Assembly (NCBI GenBank): GCA_033856915.1
Contig: JAWVEB010000002.1
Span: 24,672-88,671 of the forward strand
From: Blastocatellia bacterium
GTDB taxonomy: Bacteria > Acidobacteriota > Blastocatellia > Pyrinomonadales > Pyrinomonadaceae
Length of the DNA: 64,000 nt
Direction: 5' to 3'
Positions 32,394 through 57,168 of the stretch are shown here, piece after piece. The translations under genes were made by a program, and so were the position numbers. How positions within the stretch are numbered: the stretch's first letter is position 1; each line of letters begins with the position of its first letter. The notes beneath the pieces are model-generated. The model was not told the DNA's origin. It saw only the letters and a list, made by a program, of their open reading frames with translations, and did no database searches.

Positions 32394-32682
32394 TTTCTTC
32401 TCCTTCCGCAGTGAGGCGCGCCAAACTAGAACCGAAGCCCTACAATTTGAATGCCGAAATTGTTTAATCTGTTTCGCATGATGCCAGCGAGGTGGCAACG
32501 TTGAAATGTGAACGACTCTTGAGCGATTGAATCCTACGCCAAGCATTTCTTGGCCGTCAATAACAAAACACACCAAAAAAACATGGTCATTTGAGGTGCG
32601 CTGAGGGGAACAGCTCTCGTGCCAAGGATCGTTCGGATCAGCGAAAAACGCGGTTCGTACCGCTGCGTTATTGAGAGGATTC

Positions 32683-35176: not shown

Positions 35177-35244
35177 GGTAGGATCTATGCCAAGTAGCCT
35201 GCCGATAACGGAGGACTCAACGACGGTCTAAGAAGCGAATCACT

Positions 35245-36768: not shown

Positions 36769-36821
36769 ACTTTTGTGCACGAAACATGGTGAGCCTTCAC
36801 AAACCTCAGGAGGTGCGGACA

Positions 36822-38783: not shown

Positions 38784-38804
38784 TACTACGGAGCAATAAC
38801 GATC

Positions 38805-40411: not shown

Positions 40412-42502
40412 TTAATTCAGCGATACGAACTTTCCATTCAACCAACCACGATCGCTCGAGGACTGGTCTTCCTTAGCGCGTCCGTGCTGCATGATCTGAA
40501 TCTCATACCAACTGCCATCGGAACTGAGATTAAGAATGCGCACGCGCGAGTTACGTTCGGCCAGGCCGACCTTGCGGTAATTTGATCCAACGCCTTCCCG
40601 TAGATTCACATCCGTCGACGTGACGCCGGTCCTTCCCACCAGCGAGGGGGCTGGGGGCGGCATGGGAGATGCTGTTGGAGTGTTTCGATTGAAATTAAAG
40701 CCGTTCCACCAGGGCTGCGCGGCAACCAACCAACTCACAATCGAATACATAAGGACTGTGCTGGCAATCAGCCAGAGGGCGGAGACCACCATGCCGTTGA
40801 TGGAATGGGTACTCGTAGATGGAGCAAAAACCCTCGCCGGCCTACTCGCGCGAGACGGCAGGACACCAACAGATCCGTGCCCGTTCAGGTCTAGTCGGTA
40901 GTGTTTGAGAATCCAATCAAGTGGTTCCAGTACGCCTTCCGGGTTGAACGGTGCCACTCGGCCATCGGGCAACCGGCCAAGCGCACTGCAATAGAAGTAA
41001 TGCATATCTTTAAAGTCATGCTCGATGCTGCGCACAAGATTGCCCTCGCCATGGCTTATAAGCCACGCGCGCACTGCCTGCGATTCTGGATCACCTTTTC
41101 GGTGCCCGCCTTTGTTATTACCATCGCCGCTGGTTGCTGTTACCTCTTCGCCAGCCGATTGAATATCCACGGAGAGGCCGAATGCGTCCGCTTTCGTAAC
41201 CACGACCGCGACTGGCACGCTGCCAAAGCGGCTGCCCATGCCGGAATGCTCGCGCAAGGTTCCGATCATGCGGGCATACACATCTTGCGGCTGCTCCTCA
41301 CACGGCTTGATGAGTGTCTCCGCAGCTTTCAGGTCCGAGGCGAAATCCGTTTGGACTCGCGCCAACGAAAAAGGATCGAGAAGGAAGAGAATACCGTGGG
41401 TGTATTCATAATAAGCGTGGCTCCGCAGCACATCGGTTCGCTGGTACAACTCTCCGGCAGCATCATAGACATACATTAGTCCCTCATGCCCGCTGCCATT
41501 TTTGAGATTTACCAGAAAGGCGTCGGGAGAATCCGAGGCCGTTTTATCAAGCAGTATTCCGCGACCAAAGTTTTGCCGACTCTTTTCGAACAAGGTTTGA
41601 TGTTTCTTTTCCGGGAACTCCAGACTTAGAGTTCCGCCGTCCGCGCGTTGCTGTAACTCGCACATGTTAGCCATCAGGAAACTGGTCTTTCCGGCGGCCG
41701 GCCCTCCGACAATAGGTATGTGCAGATTACGGACGACGCCCATTGCCGTGCTTAGCGGCTGCCCACATTCTTTATGTGGACAAATACTAGGCAAGTCATT
41801 GCGGCCAAACAAAAACAGTGTAGGCAGCTTCGTACCGCACTGGCATTGCCGGCGAAGAATGCCGTAACTACCCGGAATCAGTCGCTTATGTTGAACTCCG
41901 CAATGTGGACAAATATAGACAGGGAGGCTGATTTTTTTATAGCATCCGGCATTAGGACAAACGAGAAAGATTCGCCGCCAAAGCATCGAAACGTACTCGA
42001 CGAAACGCAGAAGAAGGCCAAGGCAAAAGGCAAGGGCAGCGCAACTGACCACGATCAAAAGGTGAACGATACCGAAGATGAGATAGGCAATGGCGGCCGA
42101 GACCGCACCCGCGGCGGCCAGCGCGAAGAAGGTAATGCCAAGCGGCCAGGTAAACCAAACACCGCCATTGGTAAAAAACCACGTTCCCGTTTTGACCACC
42201 CACTCAGCAGCAGCGAGATTAGGAACCCAGCTCTGGCGCACGACCAACTCGTAGTCTCGGTATGCCTTACGAAAATAATACTGGCGATACGCCGGCTCCG
42301 GTCCTTCCGGGCCGTCCTTCCAGCCTGTACCAACAAACAACTCTGTCCACATTGTGTGGATGTAGTGGTAAAGGACGACACAGATGAAGGCGACGCAACC
42401 TAATGGGAACAGTATGAACGAGAGCCAAAACAGTACGTAGATATACAGCAGGTAAAGCGCAATCGCTGCAACAATGAGGATGAGGTAAATAACTGCAGCC
42501 AT
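40412..42502 (-). CDS. membrane-anchored zinc-ribbon P-loop GTPase-like protein with C-terminal TM + SH3b-like domain
   Basis: It has ~5 N-terminal TM helices. Zinc ribbons are CPNAGCYKKISLPVYICPHCG and CQCGTKL...CPHKECG. The Walker A is VGGPAAGKTSF, with DxxG at YVYDAAGE and VVVTKAD. A late TM (VVSALWLIASTVLMYSIVSWLVA) follows, then the tail TDVNLREGVGSNYRKVGLAERNSRVRILNLSSDGSWYEIQI. Confidence 0.75.
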   Translation of the reverse strand: MAAVIYLILIVAAIALYLLYIYVLFWLSFILFPLGCVAFICVVLYHYIHTMWTELFVGTGWKDGPEGPEPAYRQYYFRKAYRDYELVVRQSWVPNLAAAEWVVKTGTWFFTNGGVWFTWPLGITFFALAAAGAVSAAIAYLIFGIVHLLIVVSCAALAFCLGLLLRFVEYVSMLWRRIFLVCPNAGCYKKISLPVYICPHCGVQHKRLIPGSYGILRRQCQCGTKLPTLFLFGRNDLPSICPHKECGQPLSTAMGVVRNLHIPIVGGPAAGKTSFLMANMCELQQRADGGTLSLEFPEKKHQTLFEKSRQNFGRGILLDKTASDSPDAFLVNLKNGSGHEGLMYVYDAAGELYQRTDVLRSHAYYEYTHGILFLLDPFSLARVQTDFASDLKAAETLIKPCEEQPQDVYARMIGTLREHSGMGSRFGSVPVAVVVTKADAFGLSVDIQSAGEEVTATSGDGNNKGGHRKGDPESQAVRAWLISHGEGNLVRSIEHDFKDMHYFYCSALGRLPDGRVAPFNPEGVLEPLDWILKHYRLDLNGHGSVGVLPSRASRPARVFAPSTSTHSINGMVVSALWLIASTVLMYSIVSWLVAAQPWWNGFNFNRNTPTASPMPPPAPSLVGRTGVTSTDVNLREGVGSNYRKVGLAERNSRVRILNLSSDGSWYEIQIMQHGRAKEDQSSSDRGWLNGKFVSLN

Positions 42503-42512
42503 GATTTTACAT

Positions 42513-44588
42513 TTAACGCCTCCACCGCATTAAGAGCCCTGAATCGCCGCCGGCTTGGCTGCCGACTAGTTCCTGGGCGATGTTTCCAAAAGTTGAGGTA
42601 AGATCACCTGTTTTGACCAACAGGGCTGCCTGATCGGACGTAGCAATTTCGCGAAGGAACTTTTCATCGGCGCTGCCAAAGCCGATGGCTATGATCTCAA
42701 TTCCTGCTTGATGACATACTTTCGCCTGCTGGATCGCACTCGCTTGACAGGACCAGACTCCATCCGTGAGCACGACGAAATATCGAGATCCTTCGACACC
42801 TTTGAGTTGCTCCAGGGCATGACCAAAGGGGTGCGCAGAATTGCCGCCACCGAGTCCGACCTCCAGTGAGTCAATCGCATGGCTCAGTTTCTTTCCGTCC
42901 TGGGTAGCAAGCTGATCTATGCGCACGGAGTTAGCGAAGGAGACCAGACCAATCGATGTGTGCGATAGATCGCTGCTGCGCACAAATTCATGCATCGCCT
43001 GCTTGGCTTCCGCGAGTGGTGCGCCGCTCATGCTGCCCGAGAGATCAACGGAGAGGTATACGGCCTTATGCGCAATGGCGAGATCCTTCGGCGATTTATA
43101 GATCCAGGACATATCTTCAGGTATGGCTTCCTTGACAACCGTGAGCGAGCGACCCGTGCTCTTCTCGGTGGCCGTCACGCTGATTACGTCGCTGCGGTCG
43201 GACTCGTACGAAATATTCAGTACTGCCAGACCTTTCTTCCCGTGGGGGATGTCACCTATTACGTACTTCCCGACAAACGAACTGTTAGCCGGATCGTCAC
43301 CTTCGCCTTGGGTGACGAAGACCGCAGTGGAGTTATCCCCTTTTTCACGCGTGCGGACCTGGTAAGGACGAACTTCGCTGCATGGTATGGATCGATTCTT
43401 GGGAATCAAAATGCTGTTGAGGTAACGCTCGCCGTCAGCGCTAACCGCTATCATTCCCATGCTGTGGCTCATCACGTCGCGAATACGCGCACTTTTGAGA
43501 AAAGCCAGACCGCCTTTTGCCCTTTTATCTTCGCCATACTCAGCGGCCTGAAGGGCTGCACCCAGGGCAACGCATTCGTCCGGGTTGAGAGCGGTATTGG
43601 CAGGCTTGCAGCTCAATCGTCCGATCAATTTAAGACAGGCCGGCATCCGGGTTGAGCCGCCAACCATAAGCACGCTGCCAATCCGCGAATAGTCAAAGTT
43701 TGTCTCTTCGATTACCTTGCCGATCAGTAGTTCCGTCTGCGAGAGCAAGTCAGCGGTCAGGCTTTCAAACAAATCGCGCGTGATCTCGATCCGATCCATC
43801 TTGCCCTGGCAGTTGATCGCGACGATTGCGTTAGTGCGCGCCGATAAGCTTTTCTTCGCTTCCTCGGCGCGGATTAAGATCTCTTGGAAGGTGTATGGGT
43901 CGTCCAGCGGATTGATGCCATGGCGTTGTTCGAACTGCTCACAAAGATACTGAACGAGGCGGTCATCCCAATCCTTGCCGCCGAGATTGTGATTACCATC
44001 CGAGCCAATCACTTCAATGCCGTCGGGAGAAACCCGCACCAGCGAGATGTCAAAGGTGCCACCGCCGAGGTCGTACACCATTACCGTCTCTTCCCGCGTG
44101 TTCTGCTTCAAACCATAAGCAATGGCCGCCGCCGTGGGCTCATTGATCATTTGCACAACTTCCAGTCCGGCCAGCTCTCCGGCATCTTTTGTGGCCAGCC
44201 GCGCGGCATCCTGGAAATACGCCGGTACAGTGATAACGGCGCGCCGGATTGGTTTGTTGAGTTCCGCCTCACCATCGGTCTTAAGTTTTTTGAGCACTTC
44301 GGCTGAGAGTTCTGACGGCGTGTAGTTGCGGCCCTGATAGCTATAAACGGCCGCCGTACCCATGTCGCGCTTAAAGAATTGCGCGGTGTTCTCCTTTTCC
44401 AGAGCCATTTCCTGCTTGGCTGCCTCACCAACTATCGCACTTCCATCCGGGCGCAGTTGCACAACCGACGGCGTTATCTTGGTCCCCTCGCTGTTTGCCA
44501 GGACCTCGGGTCTGTCATAGTCGTTGATGTAAGCGATGGCCGAGTTGGTGGTGCCCAAGTCAATGCCGACGAGAACTTCTGTATTCAT
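42513..44588 (-). CDS. Hsp70-family ATPase (NBD + beta-SBD) fused to a C-terminal von Willebrand A domain
   Basis: Hsp70 motifs are VGIDLGTTNSAIA, VITVPAYF...MINEPTAAAIAYG, VMVYDLGGGTFDISLV and VLMVGGSTRMPA. The vWA MIDAS context is VYLSVDLSGSMSG...IGLVSFANS...YFVVLTDG. Confidence 0.88.
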   Translation of the reverse strand: MNTEVLVGIDLGTTNSAIAYINDYDRPEVLANSEGTKITPSVVQLRPDGSAIVGEAAKQEMALEKENTAQFFKRDMGTAAVYSYQGRNYTPSELSAEVLKKLKTDGEAELNKPIRRAVITVPAYFQDAARLATKDAGELAGLEVVQMINEPTAAAIAYGLKQNTREETVMVYDLGGGTFDISLVRVSPDGIEVIGSDGNHNLGGKDWDDRLVQYLCEQFEQRHGINPLDDPYTFQEILIRAEEAKKSLSARTNAIVAINCQGKMDRIEITRDLFESLTADLLSQTELLIGKVIEETNFDYSRIGSVLMVGGSTRMPACLKLIGRLSCKPANTALNPDECVALGAALQAAEYGEDKRAKGGLAFLKSARIRDVMSHSMGMIAVSADGERYLNSILIPKNRSIPCSEVRPYQVRTREKGDNSTAVFVTQGEGDDPANSSFVGKYVIGDIPHGKKGLAVLNISYESDRSDVISVTATEKSTGRSLTVVKEAIPEDMSWIYKSPKDLAIAHKAVYLSVDLSGSMSGAPLAEAKQAMHEFVRSSDLSHTSIGLVSFANSVRIDQLATQDGKKLSHAIDSLEVGLGGGNSAHPFGHALEQLKGVEGSRYFVVLTDGVWSCQASAIQQAKVCHQAGIEIIAIGFGSADEKFLREIATSDQAALLVKTGDLTSTFGNIAQELVGSQAGGDSGLLMRWRR

Positions 44589-44638
44589 CCAATCTCCTCA
44601 CGCGATAACCTGCTGTTGTCGTTTCACGTCATGCGGAT

Positions 44639-47188
44639 TCAACGCAATCCAAACCATTGTTTGATACGTACCAGGCCACCTGGCTCCTGGAACATGGTCC
44701 GCCACTTGATCCAACGCAGATGAGCGTTATGACTTTCCATCAGACCTTTCTCAACGGCCTCCAAATCCCTCGCGCGCCAGCTGTGCAGCGCCTTCGGAAG
44801 GACATCGATCAACAGGTAGTTAGCTATTTCGCCGCCCTGCGTCCTTTCGGTGGCGATCCAGATTCTGAACAAGCGAGCCACTTCTCGCGCTTTTCCGGAG
44901 GTATGCCTGGCCAATGAGGCCGCAATCTCCTGCCCATACCAACCTAGAAAAGGTCCGGCTCGTTGACTCCCGTAGGTCCTGATTAACAGGTGGTAGTGTG
45001 CGTCTTCATCTTTGACGTTAATGAGACGACGGGCGAGCAATCTGTAAATGGTGGTCTTGGCTTGTTCGTCCAGGCCGACGCCACGCTGCTTGAGAAACAC
45101 CAGCGCATCCTCGATGGCAACTACCGCGTCACGCCCCTCAAGCAGACCGCTGGCGAAATGACAAGCAACAACGGTTAACGACTTGTCTCCCAGAGTCTCG
45201 AAAATCTCTTTGGAGCTCAGCCGATCTTTCAACTCTTTTTGTTTCGGATCCGACAAGCCCTCGTCGGTGACGACCAGCAGGGGGACCAGGGAGCGCGTTA
45301 TACCCGGGTCCAACACTCGCAGGGCCTGCATCTGATCAAGTAGCCAGGCAGCCTCAGCTAGTGTAGGCATGCACTGCTGCCAGACTGCCACAAACGCATT
45401 GCTAATATTTTCAGCCGACAAAGTCAGGCCAAAACGCTGCGCTGCGGCCAGACATTGCTGGAAAGCCTGGAGGCGCGCATCCGGACCGGCCGATGACAGC
45501 GACGCCTGTGCAGCCATTAAACGAAAATACAGAGCCAGGTTCTTTTGCTCGGTGGCATAGGTCACAAGAGTATTGAAGAGTTCTGGCTGGCTCAGCCATT
45601 GCGCCGCGCCAGTGAACGCGTTTGGCTGACTTACTTGAATCGCGAGATACTCACCGATGCCATAAACGATATCGCGCATTCCCACTCGATGAATAAGCCC
45701 GGCCACAATCTGCCGCACTGGAACGTTGGACAGCGCCGGAGCGACAATTGTCTTGCCCAGGTGGCGCAACATCTCGTCTGGCTCATTAAGAAAGCCCAGT
45801 TTGTCACCAAGTTGCAGAAGCACGCATAAGCGTCTGGGTTCCTCCGTTTGACGAACTTGCTTCATCCAAAGCAGGCGCAGCGGTTGCAATTCGCTATCGA
45901 GCTCAGTCGACAACTGCAGCTGGGATAGCGCGGCCAATATGACTTCCGTTGCAGCACTGACGCTTACGTCCCTGATGAGCCATTCAAGATACGGACGCTC
46001 AATCAGTTCCCTGACCTCAGCATGAGTTTCCTCGTTGCCCGCGGCTAGGAAGAGATCCGTATATGCCTCAACCACCTCGCGGCTGAACCCGACCTTGCTC
46101 ATTCGATCAGAGAGTAGGGTTCGAATCTGTTCGGCCTTGAAATGAGCAAGGTGGCCGGCGCACCACTTAATAATCCGGGCGGTATCGGTGCCGGGCGTAG
46201 CGAACCCTGAAACCAGCGCATGACAGGCGAAAGCCGTATCGAGTTCCTCAAGCGGCACGTCAGCCGCAACCTGCTCAGCAAAGCCGCTGAACCCGGCAAC
46301 GCCTTCCGCATTATTGTCGCGATAGGCGGCTGCGATCTGCGCGGCAAACCCTGAGACATGCACCATTGGAGTAAAACGCTCACCCTGAAAGTCGAAGACA
46401 GAGTATTGATGTTCGATCTCATGCGGCGCGAATTTGAAGTCAGAGTCAGACGTGGTACCAACTATTAGAAACTCACTCTGGTATGGATTCTTGACGTAGG
46501 TGTTGAACGTCAATCGCAATGCGAGATGAGACGGCAGGGAGTACGAGGCGGCGGCGATCCAGAGGGTGATGGTTTCGTCGTCATCAACAATGACGATGCG
46601 CCGGCCTGTGCCGAGCGCGTCCTCAACCGCAGTCAGGAAACGCGGCAGATGTGGCAGGCGATTGTTCTCACGCAAAAACTCTTCGACTGCCTCAAGGTTG
46701 ATGACGCCTCCTGCTCTTGGTTCATCCAATGGGGGCAACGACTTTGCAGAGCTCTCGCTTGTTTCCCACGTTTCGGACCGCCAGAGTTCGACAGGGAGAA
46801 GGCCTTTGCCTTTGATATCCCTTACCGGGTCGAGAGCAACAAGTGTGTGTGTAAAGTAGTTGCCGAACCGTCCGGAGTAATCCGCGCCCAGGTACTTCGC
46901 CTGCGCCAGCAAAGCGCATCCATCGCTAAGACGCTGGTAGAGTAATGATATCGGGAATCGCTCGATCTCTTCCGCCGTGGGCCGGCTCGGCGCACTGATC
47001 GGCGGCACGTACAAACCGAGGCGTTCAATCTGCTGCAACACTGACGGGTTGATGGTGTCGCTGGCTGCATTGATCTGGAACCCCTTGCTGCCGCGCAGGC
47101 CAATCTCGCACGATGTGTAGTAGGCTTGCAAAAAGCTCATCCTCAGTTCCTCCGGCCACGCACGACGTTGAGTTTGTGGAGAATCCAC
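44639..47188 (-). CDS. large alpha-helical protein, GAP1-like (GTPase-associated protein); probable start at 47140
   Basis: The probable N-terminus is MSFLQAYYTSCEIGLRGSKGFQINAASD. I recall this YTSC..G..GFQ motif from GAP1-N type domains, from memory and unverified. The remainder is helical. The ATG at 47140 lies 2 nt after the stop of the upstream GTPase gene. Confidence 0.55.
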   Translation of the reverse strand: MDSPQTQRRAWPEELRMSFLQAYYTSCEIGLRGSKGFQINAASDTINPSVLQQIERLGLYVPPISAPSRPTAEEIERFPISLLYQRLSDGCALLAQAKYLGADYSGRFGNYFTHTLVALDPVRDIKGKGLLPVELWRSETWETSESSAKSLPPLDEPRAGGVINLEAVEEFLRENNRLPHLPRFLTAVEDALGTGRRIVIVDDDETITLWIAAASYSLPSHLALRLTFNTYVKNPYQSEFLIVGTTSDSDFKFAPHEIEHQYSVFDFQGERFTPMVHVSGFAAQIAAAYRDNNAEGVAGFSGFAEQVAADVPLEELDTAFACHALVSGFATPGTDTARIIKWCAGHLAHFKAEQIRTLLSDRMSKVGFSREVVEAYTDLFLAAGNEETHAEVRELIERPYLEWLIRDVSVSAATEVILAALSQLQLSTELDSELQPLRLLWMKQVRQTEEPRRLCVLLQLGDKLGFLNEPDEMLRHLGKTIVAPALSNVPVRQIVAGLIHRVGMRDIVYGIGEYLAIQVSQPNAFTGAAQWLSQPELFNTLVTYATEQKNLALYFRLMAAQASLSSAGPDARLQAFQQCLAAAQRFGLTLSAENISNAFVAVWQQCMPTLAEAAWLLDQMQALRVLDPGITRSLVPLLVVTDEGLSDPKQKELKDRLSSKEIFETLGDKSLTVVACHFASGLLEGRDAVVAIEDALVFLKQRGVGLDEQAKTTIYRLLARRLINVKDEDAHYHLLIRTYGSQRAGPFLGWYGQEIAASLARHTSGKAREVARLFRIWIATERTQGGEIANYLLIDVLPKALHSWRARDLEAVEKGLMESHNAHLRWIKWRTMFQEPGGLVRIKQWFGLR

Positions 47189-48318: not shown

Positions 48319-48319
48319 C

Positions 48320-51300
48320 CTAAGTGATCCTTAGTTGTTGAGGCGGCGGATCGATCAAACGAAAGGTGTGCGCCTGAGGCCCATCGCGAAAGAAGGCGCG
48401 CAAGTAACAAGGACGACGCACGGCGTCCAGAGTGAACTCATGTGAAACCGGAGTTCCACTGTGCAAGCTTAGGTCACTGATAGTAGCGAGCAGAATGCCG
48501 TTATTGTTAGGTAGCGGCTGAATGTCGCCGCGCTTGGCAATTACTACAATTTCGGGGAGGTGCTTAGCCTCTCTCTCCGCGTTAAAGGTGATAGTTATAC
48601 GGTTGCGATGTAACCAGTTACCGCGCGAAATCGAGTAGGAAATAGAAAGAGGTAAACTCGTGCGCAGTAAATCGTGCGCTCCTGGACTGATACCCGAGCT
48701 GTAGATGTCTTCGCCGTCGACCTGGGTAACCGCAAAGACGACTACGTAATAAGGAGCTTTCGCCGGATCATTGATACGAAAACCACCCTCGCCATCATAC
48801 TCTCCCCGCGAGATGCGGTGCGTAGTCGCGCGAGCGTCCAGTGGATCATGGGGATACGCATCATGCCGCCAGGCCACAACGGCCAATCGAGAGTCCTCGG
48901 GCCAGCGCCATTGCAACTGCAAGTACCGACCGAAATCCACCGCTTTAAGGTGTGATACGTCCTGAGTGGTCAGATAGCGGCGAGCATTGCCAATCACAGC
49001 CACATCCCCAGCTATAGTCACTGGCACATAGAACGCAGGCTGAGTCGAGGGAGCAAAATCAACCGCAAGGTTATTCAATTCAATGCGCAGCGGTACGCCC
49101 AGAGCGGCCAGTTTTGCGGCCGGAATCTGCTCACCGATCCGCCACTCTGGCTTTTGAAACGTGCGGTAGAAACTGACCGCGCCATGCTTAGGTGGAACCC
49201 ATGAGACATGCACCACGCCCTCTTCAAGAGTGATCTGAAACTCGTCGATTGCCGGTGGGGGCTGCTCAGGCCTCACGCTCCGGACAATGCCGGATGTAAA
49301 GACCGGCTGTCCCTTCGCGTCTCGATACTCAACCACCACCCGGTAGTAATAGAGATGACCGTTGCTCACTCCCCGGTCCAGGAGATTGTGTGGCCCGGTG
49401 GGCGCGATTTCTAGACCATCGCCGGCTCTGCTCGGTGGCCTGCTTTCCTGCCTGAAGACACGCACGCGCCCTTCAGGCACATCAAATTCCCAGGAACAGT
49501 TGACCAGGCCGCCGCTCGCTTCGACGCTGAGGTTGCTTACTTCTTGCATCACCAGCATGCCGGCGGAAGAAACTCCCTTGGAAAGCACACCTGTACGTTC
49601 AGTAAACACTGTGTAAAAGACATGGCTGGCGGGACGCGCCCTTTGATCAAGGCATGAGGTGGTAGCGACCCTCGCAACCACGTCGCCGTCGGCAAGCGAC
49701 AACGCCGCTCGTCCTTCACGACGAACGATGATGTACTCGCTTCCCCCTACCGCCGGACTGGGCTGCCACTCGACCTGCACCTTTCCCTCGTGCGATTGAG
49801 CGAGCACGTTCGCGGCCGGTTCCGGTGGACAGCGTTGAAGCCCTCTTTGTGCTTCTTCAGCGTCAGCGACAATCTGAAGGGCGTCCTGGTAGGCAAAAAC
49901 TGCTTCGTTCAACCTTCCCTTTTGTTCACACTCTCGGGCCTTCGTCAAGAGCCCCTTACACAGTTTCAGCTTTTCCTCTACTTCGCCTTTCAGTTGCGGG
50001 AGATCTTTGCCGTCAAGCCCTAGATAGTTCGGTGCGACCGTGGCCAGAGAGGCGAGCTTGGTTCGTGCGGCAAAGAACCGGCGAGCCGCCACGGTTTCAT
50101 CAATTTCTCGCCGCAGGCCGCGGACCTGTTCGACGGCAACTTCAATTCGGTCGAGCAGCTTAGCCACATCACCCGAGCGTTCCCACAACCTCTCGGCTTC
50201 GCGTGCCGTCTCATGCGATTCTTCGATCCGACCTTCACCAAGTTCCAGTTGGGCCTGGCGTACGAGCAGGCGAACGCGCGGCAAGTCGCCGGTTTTGAAC
50301 CCACATTTGGCGCAGGCAGGATCACTGGCCGCCGCGCGCGAAGAGCACCTGGGACAGGTGGTCCATAGCTCCGCCCCGCAGGTTGTACAGCTCTGCGCGT
50401 TTGTCTTAAGGGGCACCAGGGCCAGGCATTTCGCGCAACGAACTGTCTCTTCGTCGGTGGACCATTCGACAGCAGCGCCGTACTCTCGCGCCAGAGTCAG
50501 AATGTATTCGGCAGCGGTCTCCTGCGCCAGACCGTGACTCAGGGCCACACCGAGCAACTGCTTGAACTCAGCTTTCGTGATCAGTTTGTCGCCCGCCGCC
50601 AATCGCACTTCCGGTCGCAGTACTTCAACAGCTTCATAGGCCAGAGCGGCGTCATACTTCGCGGCATCGCCGTCAACCATGTGCGTCTTAATCAGACCCA
50701 GCAGCAGATTGGCGTTGGTTAAGGTAAAGTCGCTTTTCTTTTGCCGCCACTCCAACTCGCGTTTGCGAAGACTTTCGGTCAGTCGGTCTTTCGAACAGCC
50801 CCGGTCGACTCCCAGGAACTCATATAGGTCGCGCTTCTGTAAGACATTGAGCCCGCTTCTGATCTGTTCGCGGGTCCCCTTGGGCAGTCCTTCGTTTGTC
50901 GGCAGTCGTACCGAAGATTCCCTGATCGGCACGCGCACCCGCGATCGGATCTCCTGTTCCGTCAAACTCTCGCACCGGTGTTGGGCCAATAGCACACTAA
51001 GTTCACCTGGGTCGATATAGCCTTTCGAGGCGACCATTCGGATTGACCTATCCAGTGCAGCGAAACGCTTCTCTCGGGATTTCTTACGCTCTGCCTCGAC
51101 AAGTTCGCGTACCGCTTTGCGAGCTTCCGAATCCAGCAGATTACGCCTGGCATCCTGCTGTTCTTTTGGCGCCAGCAAGACTGACAACACTTTGCCAAAG
51201 CGCGGATTCTGTTTACTTTTGTTCCAGTAGGCGTGGACAGTCGTGATCGCGGTCTCGATCTCTTTCGGGTCTGAGACTGTGATCGGCAGATCATAGCGCT

Positions 51301-51394
51301 CAAAGCAGTCGGGTAACCGGCTCTCACTCTTGAAAGCGTCCACGGCCGGGCTCAGCACCCGTTTGATATAATCAGCTTCGTCGAATTTCCACAT
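48320..51394 (-). CDS. J-like / double zinc-ribbon protein with helical (TPR-like) middle and C-terminal beta-rich (FN3/Ig-like) repeats; paralogue of 51610..53349
   Basis: The first ~375 aa are homologous to the next gene, and aa 1-67 are identical. The J-helix-like segment is RDLYEFLGVDRGCSKDRLTESLRKRELEWRQKK, with no HPD. The zinc ribbons are VRCAKCLALV...CTTCGAELWTTCPRCSS...CAKCGF. The C-terminal ~500 aa are rich in short beta-strand patterns. Confidence 0.7.
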   Translation of the reverse strand: MWKFDEADYIKRVLSPAVDAFKSESRLPDCFERYDLPITVSDPKEIETAITTVHAYWNKSKQNPRFGKVLSVLLAPKEQQDARRNLLDSEARKAVRELVEAERKKSREKRFAALDRSIRMVASKGYIDPGELSVLLAQHRCESLTEQEIRSRVRVPIRESSVRLPTNEGLPKGTREQIRSGLNVLQKRDLYEFLGVDRGCSKDRLTESLRKRELEWRQKKSDFTLTNANLLLGLIKTHMVDGDAAKYDAALAYEAVEVLRPEVRLAAGDKLITKAEFKQLLGVALSHGLAQETAAEYILTLAREYGAAVEWSTDEETVRCAKCLALVPLKTNAQSCTTCGAELWTTCPRCSSRAAASDPACAKCGFKTGDLPRVRLLVRQAQLELGEGRIEESHETAREAERLWERSGDVAKLLDRIEVAVEQVRGLRREIDETVAARRFFAARTKLASLATVAPNYLGLDGKDLPQLKGEVEEKLKLCKGLLTKARECEQKGRLNEAVFAYQDALQIVADAEEAQRGLQRCPPEPAANVLAQSHEGKVQVEWQPSPAVGGSEYIIVRREGRAALSLADGDVVARVATTSCLDQRARPASHVFYTVFTERTGVLSKGVSSAGMLVMQEVSNLSVEASGGLVNCSWEFDVPEGRVRVFRQESRPPSRAGDGLEIAPTGPHNLLDRGVSNGHLYYYRVVVEYRDAKGQPVFTSGIVRSVRPEQPPPAIDEFQITLEEGVVHVSWVPPKHGAVSFYRTFQKPEWRIGEQIPAAKLAALGVPLRIELNNLAVDFAPSTQPAFYVPVTIAGDVAVIGNARRYLTTQDVSHLKAVDFGRYLQLQWRWPEDSRLAVVAWRHDAYPHDPLDARATTHRISRGEYDGEGGFRINDPAKAPYYVVVFAVTQVDGEDIYSSGISPGAHDLLRTSLPLSISYSISRGNWLHRNRITITFNAEREAKHLPEIVVIAKRGDIQPLPNNNGILLATISDLSLHSGTPVSHEFTLDAVRRPCYLRAFFRDGPQAHTFRLIDPPPQQLRIT
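50270..51394. repeat. paralogous 5' module, copy 1 (matches 52225..53349)
   Basis: The ~315 nt at the 5' ends are near-identical between copies (1 aa change in the first ~105 aa). There are further identical patches, e.g. gcttgaactcagctttcgtgatcagtttgtcgcccgccgccaatcgcacttccggtcgcag. Overall identity is ~80% aa over ~375 aa. Confidence 0.85.
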
Positions 51395-51609
51395 CGCCTA
51401 GATTCCGGCAGAGTACTCATGAGACGTTTGACCCGCCTGACTGTTGCATAACCGGCAGGTAGACACCCTGTTGATTGGCCTTTTCCGTGACAAACCTAGT
51501 TTCAGTCATTTACATACGCACCGGCGTGTTGTTGTGAATCAGTTAGACGAATCACCTATCACCGTGATCTGAGTTCATGGCTACAATGCCCAATCCGTTG
51601 GAGCAGACA

Positions 51610-53349
51610 TTAGTGACCTAGCGATTTCGCGGACTGGTGTGACACAAAGGAATGCGATTCGGACCAAGCCGCCTCCTTACTTCTCAACGCCCAAAGTGTA
51701 AAGGTTCCCTTAAAGCCCTTCATCTCCACGTCGTCATGCCGCACCCAATTGAGGCTCCGATGGTGCTTCGCCCAATAATCATCTACGTGTTCTTTCGCTT
51801 GGTTACTCAACCAAATTTCACTCGCTTCTTTGATGGCGCCGAGCACCCGAGCGGCAAAGTTCACAGTTCCGCCAAAGACGTCATTATCTTCAACCTGCAT
51901 CGGACCGATATGAATGCCCGCGCGAATTTGCACGTGCGAGTGACCAGTCTCCGCTTGCAACGCCATGCCGTAGTCCAACGCCTTATCCACAGACTTAAAC
52001 GTCACCATGAAGCTGTCGCCGATGGTTTTGACTTCCCGCCCGCTGTATTCATTAATTAGTTTGCGGCTTTGCCCGAAGTGCGCGCGCCGGACTTCGTTCA
52101 TGCTCTCTCCCTTAAGTTCTTCACCGAGAGATGTCGAGCCGACGACATCCGTGAAGATAATCGCCAACACGACGCGATCGCCCCCGGCCCAGGCAGAAAA
52201 ACTCGGACCGCTTATTCCGCTGCGCGCCGACTCCACGAACATTCCCATTTTGAATCCACATTTGGAGCAGGCAGGATCGTCTACCGGCATGCGTGCAGAG
52301 CACTTTGGACAGTTGGCCCATAGACCTTCTCCGCACGTTGTGCAACTCTCCGCTTTGGTCTGGAGGCGTACCTGAGCAAGGCAGTTCGCACAATGAACTA
52401 CATCTTCGTCGATAAACCATTCGACGACAGCGTCGTACTCTCGCGCCAGGGTCAGAATGTATTCCGCGGCAGTTCCCCTCGCCAGACCGTGGCTCAGTGC
52501 AACACGCAGTAACTGCTTGAACTCAGCTTTCGTGATCAGTTTGTCGCCCGCCGCCAATCGCACTTCCGGTCGCAGAACCTCGAGAGTCTCGTACGCGAGC
52601 GCGGCATCGTACTTCGCGGGATCGCCGTCAATCAGGTACGCCTTAATGAGACCTAGCAGCAGATTCGCCGCAGTCAAGTTAAAGTCGCTTTTCTTTTGCC
52701 GCCACTCCAACGCACGTTTGCGAAGACTCTCAGTCAGTCGCTCTTTCGAACCACCTCGCTCGACTCCGAGGAAATCGTACAGGTCGCGCTTCTGCAGAAC
52801 GGCGAGCGCGCTCCTGATCTGTTCCCGCGTCCTCTTGGGCAGCCCCTCAGAAATCGGAGAGCGCAAGGAAGATTCCCGGATCGGAACGCGCACCCGCGAC
52901 TTGATCTCATCTTCCGTCAAACTCTCGCGCTGGAAACGAGCCACTAGGTCATTGAACTCACCGGGACCGATATAGCCCTTCGAAGCGATCACTTCGATCG
53001 ACCTGTCCAGAGCCGCGACTCGCTTTTCACGGATCTTCTTACGCTCCGCCTCGACAAGTTCGCGTACCGCTTTGCGAGCTTCCGAATCCAGCAGATTACG
53101 CCGGGCATCCTGCTGTTCTTTTGGCGCCAGCAAGACTGACAACAACTTGCCAAAGCGCGGATTCTGTTTACTTTTATTCCAGTAGGCGTGGACAGTCGTG
53201 ATCGCGGTCTCGATCTCCTTCGGGTCGGAGACTGTGATCGGCAGATCATAACGCTCAAAGCAGTCCGGTAACCGGCTCTCACTCTTGAAAGCGTCCACGG
53301 CCGGGCTCAGCACCCGTTTGATATAATCAGCTTCGTCGAATTTCCACAT
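51610..53349 (-). CDS. J-like / double zinc-ribbon protein fused to a class III nucleotidyl (adenylate/guanylate-type) cyclase domain
   Basis: It has the same N-terminal module as 48320..51394 (DLYDFLGVERGGSKERLTESLRKRALEWRQKK; CANCLAQV...CTTCGEGLWANCPKCSA...CSKCGF). Cyclase motifs are VLAIIFTDVVGSTSL, REVKTIGDSFMVTF, IRAGIHIGP, FGGTVNFAARV and VEMKGFKGTFTLWAL. Confidence 0.85.
   Translation of the reverse strand: MWKFDEADYIKRVLSPAVDAFKSESRLPDCFERYDLPITVSDPKEIETAITTVHAYWNKSKQNPRFGKLLSVLLAPKEQQDARRNLLDSEARKAVRELVEAERKKIREKRVAALDRSIEVIASKGYIGPGEFNDLVARFQRESLTEDEIKSRVRVPIRESSLRSPISEGLPKRTREQIRSALAVLQKRDLYDFLGVERGGSKERLTESLRKRALEWRQKKSDFNLTAANLLLGLIKAYLIDGDPAKYDAALAYETLEVLRPEVRLAAGDKLITKAEFKQLLRVALSHGLARGTAAEYILTLAREYDAVVEWFIDEDVVHCANCLAQVRLQTKAESCTTCGEGLWANCPKCSARMPVDDPACSKCGFKMGMFVESARSGISGPSFSAWAGGDRVVLAIIFTDVVGSTSLGEELKGESMNEVRRAHFGQSRKLINEYSGREVKTIGDSFMVTFKSVDKALDYGMALQAETGHSHVQIRAGIHIGPMQVEDNDVFGGTVNFAARVLGAIKEASEIWLSNQAKEHVDDYWAKHHRSLNWVRHDDVEMKGFKGTFTLWALRSKEAAWSESHSFVSHQSAKSLGH
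52225..53349. repeat. paralogous 5' module, copy 2 (matches 50270..51394)
   Basis: See copy 1. Confidence 0.85.
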
Positions 53350-53373
53350 CGCCCGATGCCCTTGCGGCGCAAG

Positions 53374-55056
53374 CTACGAGACGGTCTGTTTCAACAGCAT
53401 TCCCTTGCTGGCTTCGATTTCCTGTTGGCTCATAACGCCTTCAACCTTTACTTCCAAATTCAAATCTCTACCTGAAGAGGGCTCCACCGCTGTAACACTC
53501 AGCGTCCCGTCCTCCGCGAGGCGAAAAGTGACGTGAATCGGCGAACCCGCAGGCAGGTTGGCTGGCAAAGGCGCGATCTCGCCCTCGCTGATCAACCTGT
53601 TGTCTTCAGGTGACGGAGATTGCGTCTGGCCGGCCTGCTCCATGACGCGCACCGAGACCTGCTGTTGGTTTGGCCTGAGCGTGCCAAATCCAGTCTCGGT
53701 AACTTCGACGGGAACCGGTGTGTTGTTCTGGATTAGATATGCCACATACTCCTTTTCACCGTCCTCAGCATCAACCGCAACTACGCCGAAACCCTTGGAA
53801 CAAACGTTGATGATTTTTCGCGTAGCCATGTCGGCGAGATCTTTGCTCGGCAGACGAAACTTCCCGCCGGCCGTAGCAGTTGCTTTCTTTGCAGCCTCCG
53901 CGATAGTTCCCTGATCGATCTCCGCCAGATCAACCTCCTCGATCGTCGTTCCCGTCTCGTTGGCAATGATCTCCCTGATCATTTCGCCCGCCATGATCTT
54001 CTGGCCCATTAAGGCCGCGCCCTTCGCCACTGACAAATCGGGTTCGAAAAGATTAGTCTCGATCCCAAACTCCTCTTGCATTCTCCGGGCAACAGCGGGC
54101 ATTTTACTTAGGCCTCCGACCAGCAGGATCTGATCGATTTTGCCGATGCCTTTTCCCTTGGCTTCTTCCAATACATGTCGCGTCAGATCAATCGTCTGTT
54201 GCAAGAGATCGGCGGTCAACTCTTCCAGTTTCTCTCGCGTTACCTCGACACGCGCCCGCTTGCCGTTGTGGGAAACCATCAGCGGATATTTCTCTTTCGC
54301 GGACAATCCCTTCTTGATCTCTTCTGCCGATTTGGCAAGCTCTTGCATCGAATAGGGGTCGTCGAGAGGATTGCTCTCACCGGCGTTCTCAGTCATGAAC
54401 TGTTCCGCCAAATATTCGATCAGCCGATCGTCCCAATCTTTGCCCCCCAGATTGTGATTGCCGCCTGTAACCACGACGCGAATATCTCCTTGTTCCATGG
54501 CGATCACCGTGATGTCAAAAGTGCCGCCGCCCAAATCGTAAACGAGCACAACCTCATCACCTTTTGTTTTGTCGTCGCCGTAGCAGATTGCCGCCGCCGT
54601 TGGCTCATTGAGAATATTGACGACGTTCAGGTCAGCCAGGATCCCGGCATTCTTGGTCGCTTCGCGTTCGTTGATCCCGAAGTATGCGGGGCAAGTGATC
54701 ACCACATCTTTGATCTGGTCGCCGACCGTCTGCGAGGCGTCGCTGGCCAGCTTGCGCAAAATGTAGGAAGAGATTTCCTCAGGCCGATAGCTTTTGCCGT
54801 CTATCTCGCGGCTGAACGTCGCGTCACCCATATTGCGCTTCACGAATTCCACGACCCGCCCGGGATCAACCTTACTGGCATTCTTTGCTTCCTTGCCCAC
54901 GACAATGTTGTCCGCACTTTCAAAATGAACGACCGAAGGCGTGGTCAGGTCTCCCTCGAAGTTTGGCACCACGACGGGCTTGCCCCACTCGTCCACATAG
55001 GAGATACATGAATAGGTTGTGCCAAGATCAATTCCGTAGATACGACTCGCGGTCAT
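53374..55056 (-). CDS. non-canonical short Hsp70-family chaperone (NBD + beta-SBD, no helical lid or EEVD tail)
   Basis: Motifs are YGIDLGTTYSCISY, VITCPAYF...ILNEPTAAAICYG, VLVYDLGGGTFDITV and ILLVGGLSKMPAV. The SBD-like part is IHVTFRLAEDGTLSVTAVE. Its ATG overlaps the stop of the GrpE-like gene (ATGA). Confidence 0.9.
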   Translation of the reverse strand: MTASRIYGIDLGTTYSCISYVDEWGKPVVVPNFEGDLTTPSVVHFESADNIVVGKEAKNASKVDPGRVVEFVKRNMGDATFSREIDGKSYRPEEISSYILRKLASDASQTVGDQIKDVVITCPAYFGINEREATKNAGILADLNVVNILNEPTAAAICYGDDKTKGDEVVLVYDLGGGTFDITVIAMEQGDIRVVVTGGNHNLGGKDWDDRLIEYLAEQFMTENAGESNPLDDPYSMQELAKSAEEIKKGLSAKEKYPLMVSHNGKRARVEVTREKLEELTADLLQQTIDLTRHVLEEAKGKGIGKIDQILLVGGLSKMPAVARRMQEEFGIETNLFEPDLSVAKGAALMGQKIMAGEMIREIIANETGTTIEEVDLAEIDQGTIAEAAKKATATAGGKFRLPSKDLADMATRKIINVCSKGFGVVAVDAEDGEKEYVAYLIQNNTPVPVEVTETGFGTLRPNQQQVSVRVMEQAGQTQSPSPEDNRLISEGEIAPLPANLPAGSPIHVTFRLAEDGTLSVTAVEPSSGRDLNLEVKVEGVMSQQEIEASKGMLLKQTVS

Positions 55057-55832
55057 TTCCCTGTTTCCTCCGTTGGTTGATCGGCACTCACGGCCTTTTC
55101 GTTGTCTGTTGCCTCATCCAGGGCGGCGCCCCGTGTGAAGCGAAACACCTCAGCCTCTAAAATGCGAATGATCTTTGTGTCAGTGCGGAAGCCTACGCGC
55201 ACGACACGCGCAATTGCCCTATCAAAGCCAGCGTTCTGCGTGGGAACGACGCCAAGAGCCTTCTGTTCTTTGGAATTGAATGGTGAGCCCTCTAGAGCTT
55301 CGTACCGCTCAACTCCGTGCCGGTAGAGGACATCCTCGACGGCATCGCAGAAAGACTTGAAATCACGTGAGATCTCTTTCATGTCTGCGTCGGCGCGCTC
55401 TTCAAATCTTTTCCCGGTCTGCTTGAGGTCGTCGTAGAGCCTTATGAGATCACGAAATAGCGGAGCGACGGCTTGCGAAATCTCACCGGCACGGAGCTGC
55501 TGATTCTCCTGGTGCAAACGGTCAATTATGCGTTCGCGATCGCTGGAAAGAACGTTAGCTTCCTCGAGAAGGGCGGCTAGCTGCTCGACACGTTGACTCA
55601 AAATCTGAATACCCTCGTTATGCTGGTCCGTGGCAGCCTCAACCTGTTGGTTGGGGACGACCTCTGCTGTAACAACTTGTTCTACTGAAGGGACGTCAGT
55701 GGGTTCTTCTGACACAACTGAATTCGTCGGCGTAATCTCGGAAGCGGGCGGCTGCTCGCCTTCCGGTTCGTTCTGTTCTGCGAGACCCGTGCTTGTTTCA
55801 TCTACACTCATGAAAGTTCCCTCTACAGTCAA
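55053..55832 (-). CDS. GrpE-like nucleotide exchange factor (probable start ATG at 55811)
   Basis: It has an acidic N-terminus and a long coiled coil (VEQLAALLEEANVLSSDRERIIDRLHQENQQL). The C-terminal beta domain is GVERYEALEGSPFNSKEQKALGVVPT...IARVVRVGFRTDTKIIRILEAEV. GAGGGA precedes the ATG at 55811. Confidence 0.7.
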   Translation of the reverse strand: MTVEGTFMSVDETSTGLAEQNEPEGEQPPASEITPTNSVVSEEPTDVPSVEQVVTAEVVPNQQVEAATDQHNEGIQILSQRVEQLAALLEEANVLSSDRERIIDRLHQENQQLRAGEISQAVAPLFRDLIRLYDDLKQTGKRFEERADADMKEISRDFKSFCDAVEDVLYRHGVERYEALEGSPFNSKEQKALGVVPTQNAGFDRAIARVVRVGFRTDTKIIRILEAEVFRFTRGAALDEATDNEKAVSADQPTEETGK

Positions 55833-56055
55833 TCGCCTGACGACGCATTCCGAAGGTGAATCCTAGGGTGCCCGCGGTGAAGCCAATCCCAATACAACAG
55901 GTATTCCCACGAGCCCTGCCGGTGGAGGTCAGCACCACTAAATTGGTATCAAAACTTGGCGAAAACCGGCTGAGTGAAGTTGAAGAGAAGTTCGGTTCTC
56001 GTCTCTGGCAGAAATACCGATCCTTCGTACGGCGCGGCACCTGCTACAACAGCTG

Positions 56056-56247
56056 CTATCGTGACTTGAACACATCACTGATCGCATCAACGCTTCCTCG
56101 ACCCAAATACCCGAAAGCGTCCGCAATCTTGTCAGGCTTTCCACTCACTGCATAAACGATGCTTTGCACCAGACAGACCACAAAGTAGCCGGAGATTTTG
56201 AAGCTGGCTAAGAGTAGGTTTCCGAAAAGCTCGAAGGGTCCTGGCAT
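56056..56247 (-). CDS. 63-aa small membrane protein (unknown)
   Basis: AGGAAGG lies 7 nt upstream of the ATG. It has one hydrophobic helix (GYFVVCLVQSIVYAV). It has the same orientation as the Hsp70 cluster. Confidence 0.45.
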   Translation of the reverse strand: MPGPFELFGNLLLASFKISGYFVVCLVQSIVYAVSGKPDKIADAFGYLGRGSVDAISDVFKSR

Positions 56248-56406
56248 TTAGCACCTTCCTAACAAGTCGAAGCGAACTGTCCTAGGAGATCGCATCCGGG
56301 TTGCACACCAAAGAGCGGACACGGGCCTACGTCAAATTCGCTGTCTCGACATTAAGGCAGACAACCGCGCGCGGGCCCGAGTTCAAGTCAACCCCGTAGG
56401 AAGAGG

Positions 56407-56574
56407 CTATAACCAGCCTTTTCCATGGCACACCCCGCACTTAACGACGCCGGAGCCATGACAATTCTTGCACTGGGATGAAGAAGTTAAGAGGCTACCG
56501 CTTAGCCTGCCTTTACCATGACACTTCGGGCACTTTACGGAGCCTTTTCCGCTGCAGGTGTTGCACTTTGGCAT
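56407..56574 (-). CDS. 55-aa DnaJ-type cysteine-rich zinc-finger mini-protein (below the ORF-track cutoff)
   Basis: Hand translation gives MPKCNTCSGKGSVKCPKCHGKGRLSGSLLTSSSQCKNCHGSGVVKCGVCHGKGWL, which contains four CxxCxGxG repeats. AAGGAGG lies 9 nt upstream of the ATG. Confidence 0.7.
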   Translation of the reverse strand: MPKCNTCSGKGSVKCPKCHGKGRLSGSLLTSSSQCKNCHGSGVVKCGVCHGKGWL

Positions 56575-56850: not shown

Positions 56851-57168
56851 TCAGACCTGGAATTCGCTATCCAAGTTGTCATTGAGAATGAGATCAATAC
56901 GATTGTGTAACTCATCAATATTCTCAAGGGCTAAAGCGACCATTTCCGCCGGAGCGCCCGATTGATCCTGCCTGACGCCGTACAGGATGACACCGCCGTC
57001 CGCATTTGCCATCGACGAGACGTCCTTGAGAAATTCAAATTTCCTGTCATCGCTTAGGGGCAGAAGCGCAAGTTTGTATTCGATCTGCGGCCCTTCCCGT
57101 ACAGCTCTCGTCTGAAGGTTTTCAATATCGGCGCAAGAGATTGACGCGATGTCTTCCAAGAGTCTCAT
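56851..57168 (-). pseudogene. truncated AlbA_2/Schlafen-type (divergent AAA_4) DNA-binding domain gene, only ~105 aa
   Basis: EGPQIEYKLAL...KFEFLKDVSSMANADGGVILYGV matches the E.K...AfANt.GG.l..GV pattern of AlbA_2 N-termini. Normal family members are 400+ aa. An in-frame stop sits at 56851, and no continuation is seen downstream. Confidence 0.5.

Follow-up and report, generated by a model that had tools for sequence, protein, structure and literature searches.

GAP1-N2 DO-GTPase systems were described by Kaur, Burroughs, Iyer and Aravind (2020; eLife 9:e52696, PMC7159879), by computational prediction only, as NTP-gated, membrane-proximal systems of conflict or surveillance, and GAP1-N2 was counted by them in 904 organisms. 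In the sections of that paper drawn on here, GAP1 is encoded downstream of a GTPase and is linked to a protein with rapidly evolving fibronectin type III (FNIII) repeats; one of the GTPases has two N-terminal zinc ribbons, and the other has four transmembrane (TM) segments plus a further single one (4TM+1TM) with an SH3b tail. A second theme in those sections, present in about 14% of the neighbourhoods, brings in HSP70 and GrpE, with the FNIII repeats fused to DnaJ or TPR, and a subset of systems has a second Hsp70 whose ATPase domain comes without a peptide-binding domain. Here we analyse a ten-gene cluster at 40412-56574 of a 64,000-nt stretch of contig JAWVEB010000002.1 from a Blastocatellia bacterium (the whole stretch being referred to as the window, on which all coordinates are based), and conclude that it is very probably a complete GAP1-N2 DO-GTPase system of the HSP70/GrpE theme.

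A sequence-only reading of the same DNA had referred to GAP1 with paired GTPases as a purely computational prediction, which matches what those sections of Kaur et al. say; the same sections also describe the link of Hsp70, GrpE and a J-protein to GAP1 and the paired GTPases, and the combination is thus not the unrecognised one that it had been taken for. The absence of experimental characterisation was rightly noted: no experimental study was found, GAP1 and DO-GTPases being named, in the literature found, by Kaur et al. (2020) alone, and PADLOC includes no model of the system. When the ten proteins were scanned with PADLOC no meaningful match was obtained, and the locus thus belongs to no catalogued type of defence system. 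Among predicted bacterial conflict systems never put to experiment, the GAP1/DO-GTPase type is one of the largest families, and the present locus, being a compact and complete example with all catalytic motifs intact, is a good template for reconstitution.

Gene complement and conservation of the cluster

Ten open reading frames (ORFs) occupy 40412-56574, all on the minus strand and in one direction as had been proposed from the sequence alone, and Pfam profiles together with inspection of motifs bear out nearly all of the domains named at that time (Pfam E-values are given in brackets below). The soluble DO-GTPase (391 aa, 47143..48318; DO-GTPase2, PF19993, 1.9e-7) has two N-terminal zinc ribbons, CPYC and CHHC, a Walker A motif GAKEAGKS, a Walker B motif FDTAGE with the glutamate of the family, and SKVD. 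Directly downstream is GAP1 (833 aa, 44639..47140), in which GAP1-N2 (7.5e-34), GAP1-M (3.7e-20) and GAP1-C (1.6e-16), that is PF20013, PF20014 and PF20052, all exceed their curated cutoffs. The membrane DO-GTPase (696 aa, 40412..42502) matches the same GTPase family (1.5e-9) and retains GGPAAGKT, YDAAGE and TKAD; with hydrophobic blocks at residues 1-49, 120-175 and 567-596, its layout is one of four N-terminal TM helices, zinc ribbons, the GTPase domain, a single TM helix and an SH3b-like tail that is predicted to be extracytoplasmic, the match of this tail to SH3_3 (1.3e-5) being borderline at 25.8 bits, just under the curated cutoff of 27.

The FNIII protein (1024 aa, 48320..51394) comprises one or more J-like domains lacking HPD, a double zinc ribbon (a weak match to Pfam DZR), a short TPR-like helical region, where a weak TPR match follows the zinc ribbon, and an FNIII array. 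A profile of its N-terminal module finds DNAJC5 (2.3e-4) and about 25 further J-domain chains in the PDB, with E-values of 2e-4 to 1e-3, at positions 190-250, and in the window protein and all homologues inspected the HPD motif is replaced by RQK, DRK, SPK or similar. A possible further J-like domain, more degenerate and preceding this one, is tentatively placed at residues ~27-95 from the alignment; the PDB profile search gave it no support. The FNIII region of the window protein has no Pfam match when taken alone, and a word-index search with it returned two homologues, for which reason a profile made from its C-terminal 495 aa and 23 syntenic homologues was compared with the PDB instead. 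This profile matches the FN3 domains of titin and fibronectin (1e-9 to 1e-4), and Pfam fn3 (PF00041) is matched by four of the 24 homologues of the region.

The chaperone genes include two Hsp70s, both of which are dedicated lidless paralogues. The first (560 aa, 53374..55056; HSP70, 5e-104) consists of a nucleotide-binding domain (NBD), an insertion of ~60 aa and the β part of a substrate-binding domain (SBDβ), with no helical lid; phmmer against the PDB aligns the DnaK NBD at residues 4-361 and SBDβ at residues 439-548, with nothing beyond, and the protein has the DLGTT, DLGGGT and GGLSKMP motifs of the ATPase in intact form. The second is fused to a von Willebrand factor A (vWA) domain (691 aa, 42513..44588; HSP70, 9e-118; VWA, 1e-17). 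It too has an NBD and SBDβ without a lid, the HSP70 profile being covered to position 494 of 599, and both its Hsp70 ATPase motifs and the metal-ion-dependent adhesion site (MIDAS) of its vWA domain, DLSGS (DxSxS), are present. The GrpE-like exchange factor (259 aa, 55053..55832; GrpE, 6.3e-14) probably begins somewhat later than annotated, at the ATG at 55811, as alignments of its homologues start at residue 8.

Upstream of these are two small genes. The first gene of the cluster (55 aa, 56407..56574) encodes a DnaJ zinc-finger-like mini-protein with four CxxCxGxG motifs, perfect by inspection, and a match to DnaJ_CXXCXGXG (3.5e-6) below the curated cutoff; the second encodes TM63 (63 aa, 56056..56247), which has one hydrophobic TM-like segment at about residues 9-36 and belongs to no Pfam family. 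The mini-protein had no tblastn match across the 43 reference loci described below, and a motif scan identified a similar mini-ORF with four CxxCxGxG motifs on the same strand upstream of the TM63 homologue in three of them (L001, L004 and L005); it was not found in the related loci L044 or L047. TM63 homologues were found by tblastn at the same position in L001, L004 and L005 (63-72% identity), L047 (87%) and L044 (95%). The two genes are conserved accessories in part of the family. We note that L001 has two added small ORFs (95 and 110 aa, at 2321-2956 of that locus) between the mini-gene and TM63, that the second of these has a YidD-like CxFxxTCS motif, and that a Pfam YidD gene lies just downstream of the system in L047.

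The junctions had been described as very short or overlapping, and this holds for most of them: the GrpE stop and the Hsp70 start overlap by 4 nt, and the intervals are 24 nt between Hsp70 and the cyclase gene (discussed below), 1 nt between the FNIII gene and the soluble GTPase, 2 nt between that GTPase and GAP1, 50 nt between GAP1 and Hsp70-vWA, and 10 nt between Hsp70-vWA and the membrane GTPase. It fails for three that span 159-244 nt, namely those between the CxxC gene and TM63 (159 nt), TM63 and GrpE (about 223-244 nt), and the cyclase gene and the FNIII gene (215 nt). A scan for promoters and terminators returned fewer sites than were obtained with shuffled sequences, and tRNA and Rfam scans of the 64-kb window gave no match. 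An ORF of 278 aa at 54175-55011 on the plus strand, antisense within the Hsp70 gene, is most likely spurious, being a frame within GC-rich coding sequence.

For comparison, 43 reference loci were collected by a GAP1 profile scan with one genome per species, followed by tblastn with segments of the window proteins. They span at least eight phyla and include Acidobacteriota (Pyrinomonadaceae), Eisenbacteria, Polyangia/Myxococcota, Brocadia, Sericytochromatia, Aminicenantes, Actinomycetota (Actinomadura, Streptosporangium, Nonomuraea and Solirubrobacterales) and Bacillota (Clostridium, Alkalihalobacterium and Sutcliffiella). The soluble GTPase lies immediately upstream of GAP1 in 43 of the 43 loci, and the other parts are present in declining numbers: the FNIII region in 41, the membrane GTPase in 40, Hsp70 in 32, GrpE in 30, the vWA part in 17 (among Acidobacteriota, Solirubrobacterales, Bacillota, Aminicenantes and Myxococcota), the J-like module in 16, TM63 in three and the cyclase domain in none. 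The order GrpE, Hsp70, J-like/zinc-ribbon/FNIII protein, GTPase, GAP1, Hsp70-vWA and membrane GTPase is the same in loci of Pyrinomonadaceae, Eisenbacteria and Solirubrobacterales, and such an order, kept in dozens of unrelated genomes, excludes a chance juxtaposition of the genes. It does not extend to all ten genes as a unit, as had been supposed, since the cyclase gene (found in one other locus) and the CxxC gene (found in three others) stand outside the conserved core.

Two variations in the placement of Hsp70 genes were also observed. In five loci (L022, L030, L031, L033 and L037) the Hsp70-vWA gene directly follows the first Hsp70, and in four actinomycete loci (L012, L014, L016 and L043) the far end of the locus has an added Hsp70 gene, which stands ~9 kb downstream of GAP1. 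This gene matches mostly the ATPase domain, the match being full length in L016, and is probably what Kaur et al. describe as an HSP70 lacking the peptide-binding domain.

Three metagenomic loci, L047, L044 and L048, share the layout of the window, with GAP1 proteins that are 73%, 62% and 58% identical to that of the window. In comparisons with close relatives the most divergent parts are GAP1 (58-73% identity), GrpE (60-64%) and the zinc-ribbon and helical region that follows the J-like module (65-73%), and the two GTPases and two Hsp70s are 80-92% identical. By these identities GAP1 is the fastest-evolving gene of the locus; the residues that do not vary cluster within its first 250 aa and its C-terminal part evolves fast. 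The core is under purifying selection, with ratios of nonsynonymous to synonymous divergence (dN/dS) of 0.06-0.26. Synonymous divergence (dS) from L048 differs from gene to gene, being 0.24 for the cyclase gene, 0.37 for the soluble GTPase, 0.47 for the membrane GTPase, 0.72 for the FNIII gene, 1.13 for Hsp70-vWA, 1.75 for Hsp70 and 2.47 for GAP1, and this roughly ten-fold mosaic suggests recombination or allele replacement between divergent alleles.

The fold of GAP1, a possible mechanism and an alternative role

AlphaFold2 models of GAP1, with pLDDT values of 89 at full length and 93 for residues 1-262, give residues 1-140 a ββαβββ topology with short helices after it, residues 150-252 an α/β domain, and the remainder an α-solenoid. 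Foldseek searches with the full-length model return generic HEAT/ARM solenoids only. Those with the N-terminal half against the PDB place TagF (2e-4), FLCN-FNIP2 (7e-4) and DENND10 (9e-4, TMq 0.41) at the top, with further matches to the FLCN GAP complex, GATOR1, C9orf72-SMCR8 and Pseudomonas TagF. The enrichment is coherent, because all of these are longin(-DENN) GTPase regulators, and it provides a lead of moderate strength that the half of GAP1 formed by N2 and M is a longin+DENN-like module. The words longin, DENN and roadblock are absent from the text of Kaur et al. (PMC7159879) in the portions drawn on here, which indicates that the fold was not assigned to GAP1 in them, and the DENN-like fold of GAP1 is thus put forward as a new lead, likewise of moderate strength. 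The DENN module has been regarded as eukaryote-specific (Zhang et al. 2012). The predicted fold suggests that GAP1 regulates the GTPase pair, and it makes the biochemical role of the protein testable.

The conserved list of parts, with its intact NTPase, MIDAS and cyclase motifs, invites a model for how they might interact, in what order, with what trigger and to what end, and we infer that a membrane-proximal GTP switch is the most likely mechanism. The membrane GTPase, with its SH3b tail outside and its GTPase domain inside, would pair with the soluble zinc-ribbon GTPase, and the longin/DENN-like half of GAP1 would sit on this pair and set its nucleotide state, much as FLCN-FNIP or GATOR1 does on the Rag heterodimer. 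The fast-evolving solenoid of GAP1 and the FNIII array would serve as variable recognition surfaces. A switch in GTP state would then be passed to the FNIII protein, whose J-like domain would tether the lidless Hsp70, with GrpE recycling its nucleotide; Hsp70-vWA would clamp a partner through its MIDAS, and the output would be a higher-order complex that is assembled or remodelled with energy from ATP. The duplicated J-like/zinc-ribbon module, present in this genome and in one relative, would recruit a class III cyclase to the same site of docking, where dimerisation induced by assembly would add a cyclic nucleoside monophosphate (cNMP) signal.

A predicted GAP1 system of conflict or surveillance, operating by a mechanism of this kind, is the best explanation of the locus overall, and we consider it probable. 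Taken separately, a role in conflict with invaders has about an even chance of being correct, and the specific order of events outlined above is doubtful. Equally speculative is a fuller proposal in which GAP1 is a bacterial longin+DENN regulator of a GTPase heterodimer with one membrane-anchored member, a counterpart of FLCN-FNIP/GATOR1 with Rag, and in which the switch gates the lidless Hsp70 and GrpE together with, in this lineage, the docked cyclase, so that assembly plus a burst of cNMP forms an immune (or envelope-stress) output. If true, it would give the DENN module a relative in bacterial conflict systems, and Hsp70 would be a signalling or effector engine and not a folding chaperone; if the role is immune, this would be the first system with a dedicated Hsp70 cycle as its core engine.

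Several points weigh against the conflict-system explanation. J-domains without HPD normally cannot stimulate the ATPase of Hsp70, and the J-like domain may thus tether Hsp70 rather than activate its ATPase. The Foldseek probabilities for GAP1 are 0.94-0.99 but the TM-scores are low, at 0.23-0.41. The literature yielded no experiment on any member of the class, PADLOC has no model that matches it, and the cyclase may be a transient add-on, given that its SBD tail has decayed and that it occurs in one protein cluster only. There is no recognisable toxic effector at the locus, and no cNMP-binding receptor among the ORFs of the 64-kb window that were scanned; the sequence-only reading had spoken of a self-contained sensing and effector system, a description that outruns what the data show. 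Finally, in other genomes the system adjoins housekeeping genes, among them dnaG, lpxC, polA and mutS2, and its setting in a defence island is therefore not general.

The main alternative is a non-immune role at the envelope, at the cell surface or in development, in which a membrane GTPase with a peptidoglycan-binding tail directs the Hsp70s to build or remodel a structure that is associated with the envelope or resembles a cytoskeleton. The position of the SH3b-like tail past the last TM helix is in keeping with such a machine, as is the conserved membrane anchoring of one GTPase. The evolutionary data cut both ways: strong conservation of the core under purifying selection, within the dN/dS range given above, and the housekeeping neighbours in other genomes favour it, whereas a patchy distribution over at least eight phyla with near-identical gene order suggests horizontal mobility, the FNIII array and GAP1-C evolve fast, and the dS mosaic, from 0.24 to 2.5, suggests recombination between alleles. 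Similarly, the lack of a toxic effector at the locus, which would suit an envelope function, has to be set against the capture of a cyclase head common to WD40-Ras, TIR and restriction endonuclease-like (REase) conflict proteins, and against the defence-type domains that flank the cluster in this genome. We regard such a role as possible but, on this evidence, rather unlikely.

The cyclase chimera and the flanking genes

The gene between the first Hsp70 and the FNIII gene encodes a J-like/zinc-ribbon/class III cyclase chimera (579 aa, 51610..53349; Guanylate_cyc, 2e-16; DZR). Its residues 1-369 are 82% identical to the N-module of the FNIII protein (BLASTP), and its cyclase domain occupies about residues 376-560, where the residues FTD, K..GD and VNFAAR fall at catalytic positions when aligned with Ma1120, a minimal adenylyl cyclase. 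The genes for the two paralogous N-modules (50288-51394 and 52243-53349) are 97-98% identical over the first ~300 nt and 74-87% identical over the rest, which suggests that gene conversion has recently acted at the 5' end alone. The shared J-like/zinc-ribbon module appears to be a handle by which outputs plug into the system, and the chimera may be regarded as a natural domain-swap experiment that points to this docking module.

The cyclase gene is absent from the 43 reference loci and was not found in L047 or L044; among other loci it occurs only in L048, at the same slot. The L048 protein, of 722 aa, is an intact cyclase-SBDβ fusion whose tail shares 64% identity with residues 411-560 of the Hsp70 encoded upstream. 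In the window the corresponding tail, SBDβ', is a decayed remnant at 51435..51626 on the minus strand, which by tblastn over 64 aa is 69% identical to the C-terminus of the L048 cyclase and 48% identical to the C-terminus of the window Hsp70; its frame is shifted relative to the cyclase ORF, several in-frame stops interrupt it, and it has undergone a deletion of ~240 nt. This decayed and shortened tail takes up most of the 215-nt gap noted above and explains it. The resulting order, with Hsp70 followed by J-like-zinc ribbon-cyclase-SBDβ' and then J-like-zinc ribbon-FNIII, implies a tandem duplication, and it indicates that the duplicated unit probably extended from the 3' end of Hsp70 to the 5' end of the FNIII gene, with the cyclase segment captured at the junction.

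The cyclase head shares 60-73% identity with a very large group of cyclase domains found in fusions with Roc/Ras, WD40 or TIR domains, and 72% with the head at the C-terminus of WD40-Ras conflict-type proteins, in which it alternates with REase and TIR heads. On the strength of these identities its derivation is assigned to the WD40-Ras conflict-protein family, and this common pool of heads, shared by WD40-Ras, TIR and REase proteins, links the Hsp70/GTPase systems to an effector-sharing network. A WD40-Ras gene stands close to the cluster itself, at 59183-62500, and a homologue of its product with 34% identity (P0094) carries such a cyclase head; the possibility that the cyclase was copied from this adjacent gene was rejected, since the head encoded there is a DUF4365 REase and the gene lacks a cyclase.

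In an exhaustive HMMER comparison with 1.84 billion representative proteins, only the 50%-identity cluster of the query itself covers residues 1-579. The comparison with L048 gives dN/dS values of 0.25 for the whole gene and 0.32 for the cyclase domain, and by these values the gene is best described as a rare, young chimera that is constrained by purifying selection. An alternative is that it is a by-product of the tandem duplication which makes no contribution to the system and is being lost. That neither the 43 reference loci nor L047 and L044, the two nearest relatives, have it, that its architecture is confined to a single 50%-identity cluster, and that no cNMP receptor was found nearby in the window are consistent with this, as is the decay, already complete here, of the duplicated SBDβ tail into a pseudogene remnant; yet the cyclase ORF itself is intact with all catalytic-type residues present, its dN/dS values against L048 speak of constraint, and L048, with a GAP1 of only 58% identity, has kept it in the corresponding place. 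The near identity of the first 300 nt to those of the FNIII gene, apparently the result of gene conversion, would moreover have preserved the shared docking module. We therefore think it unlikely that the gene is a passive by-product.

The flanks of the cluster in the window carry defence-type domains, in line with the defence-island setting that had been suggested. Directly upstream, at 56851-57168 (minus strand), is a truncated-looking ORF of 105 aa that is a Schlafen/AlbA_2 fragment (6e-8). It is followed on the plus strand by a gene at 57472-59163 for a 563-aa OLD/GajA/AriA-like ABC-type ATPase (AAA_21/AAA_15; PADLOC AriA 1e-26, GajA 2e-25); its end and the start of the WD40-Ras gene, which runs in the same direction, are 20 nt apart, and the two genes may form a two-gene defence module. 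The product of the WD40-Ras gene (59183-62500, plus strand; 1105 aa) has an N-terminal TIR-like region (a weak PADLOC match), WD40 repeats, a Ras/Roc GTPase domain, a zinc ribbon and the C-terminal DUF4365 REase-like head; homologues elsewhere have a cyclase head at the equivalent C-terminal position. On the other side, four co-directional genes at 34193-40331 (plus strand) converge on the cluster and match no known system, encoding a 327-aa protein of no recognised type, a 507-aa protein with PD-(D/E)XK (Cas4-like) and RNase_H_2 domains, a second unrecognised protein of 694 aa, and a 508-aa LmuA-like protein of the metallo-β-lactamase fold (PADLOC 2e-13).

More distant are two minus-strand genes of kinds typical of conflict islands, one at 28854-32576 for a 1240-aa protein with weak metallo-β-lactamase/LmuA-like similarity and one at 21530-24685 for a 1051-aa TPR-CHAT (caspase-like) protein. 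The window also includes an ordinary kdpABC operon with a KdpD-sensor-domain/Usp gene (6520-12353, minus strand) and a separate histidine kinase/response regulator pair (18311-20240, minus strand); FG-GAP/UnbV_ASPIC and BBP2 porin genes lie near the kdp and kinase genes, in what is a chromosomal housekeeping context. A planctomycete source, which these FG-GAP/UnbV_ASPIC and BBP2 genes might suggest, is rejected, because a protein with 100% identity is annotated as Blastocatellia; the DNA accordingly comes from a metagenome-assembled genome of that group.

Comparison with known systems

The chaperone genes resemble those of the housekeeping DnaK-DnaJ-GrpE cycle in their intact Hsp70 ATPase motifs, in the translational coupling of GrpE to Hsp70, and in the possession of J-fold and CxxCxGxG elements. 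They differ in that the J-like, zinc-finger and substrate-binding functions reside on separate proteins, the zinc finger being a protein of only 55 aa, and in being embedded in, and syntenic with, the GTPase and GAP1 genes. That the cluster is a housekeeping operon lying by chance beside unrelated GTPase genes, as the adjacency of Hsp70, GrpE and the CxxCxGxG protein and the DnaK proteins among the best PDB matches might suggest, is hardly credible and is essentially refuted by synteny, since in 30-32 of the 43 loci, drawn from distant phyla, Hsp70 and GrpE occur together with the GTPases and GAP1 in an unchanged order, and, as the sequence-only reading had already held, neither Hsp70 has a helical lid and no protein of the cluster has an HPD J-domain.

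Among known conflict systems, the MoxR-vWA ternary systems also partner a vWA domain with an NTP-driven remodeller, and VMAP systems also use a class III cyclase as a signalling head, but neither a MoxR AAA+ protein nor VMAP is present here. The cyclase matches PycC of Pycsar weakly (E 2e-4 over 65 residues, far below family level), and it differs from Pycsar in having no gene for a cNMP-binding effector next to it.

A likeness of another sort is that to the longin-DENN regulators (FLCN-FNIP with RagA/C, GATOR1, C9orf72-SMCR8 and DENND) and to the bacterial TagF, with which residues 1-262 of GAP1 are predicted to share a fold. As in the Rag system, the presumed partner of GAP1 is a pair of paralogous GTPases. 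GAP1 differs from these regulators in having no sequence similarity to them (10-12% identity), and the DO-GTPases are not Ras- or Rag-like; no catalytic arginine finger or surface for guanine nucleotide exchange was identified in GAP1, and the predicted likeness is one of fold only.

The closest relatives are the GAP1-N2 systems of Kaur et al. In both, a GAP1 with N2, M and C lies directly downstream of a DO-GTPase, and two paralogous TRAFAC GTPases with a Walker B glutamate are present, one with two zinc ribbons and the other of the 4TM+1TM-SH3b type. The HSP70/GrpE theme is matched by a DnaJ-like-FNIII protein, here with its HPD replaced, an Hsp70, a GrpE and a second Hsp70. In the sections of their paper drawn on here, this theme is mainly one of actinobacteria and firmicutes, with acidobacteria unmentioned, and no cyclase is mentioned in GAP1-N2 systems, whereas the present locus is from Blastocatellia and has a J-like/zinc-ribbon-cyclase paralogue; the CxxCxGxG and small-TM accessory genes are a further difference from the systems as set out there. 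The second Hsp70 described in those sections is without a peptide-binding domain and the one found here retains SBDβ and adds vWA; as the ATPase-only form defines a subset alone, this makes the locus a variant of the class and does not exclude it. What is new is that the second Hsp70 is fused to vWA, that a chimeric cyclase gene is present and that the host is an acidobacterium, within a class that had itself already been predicted.

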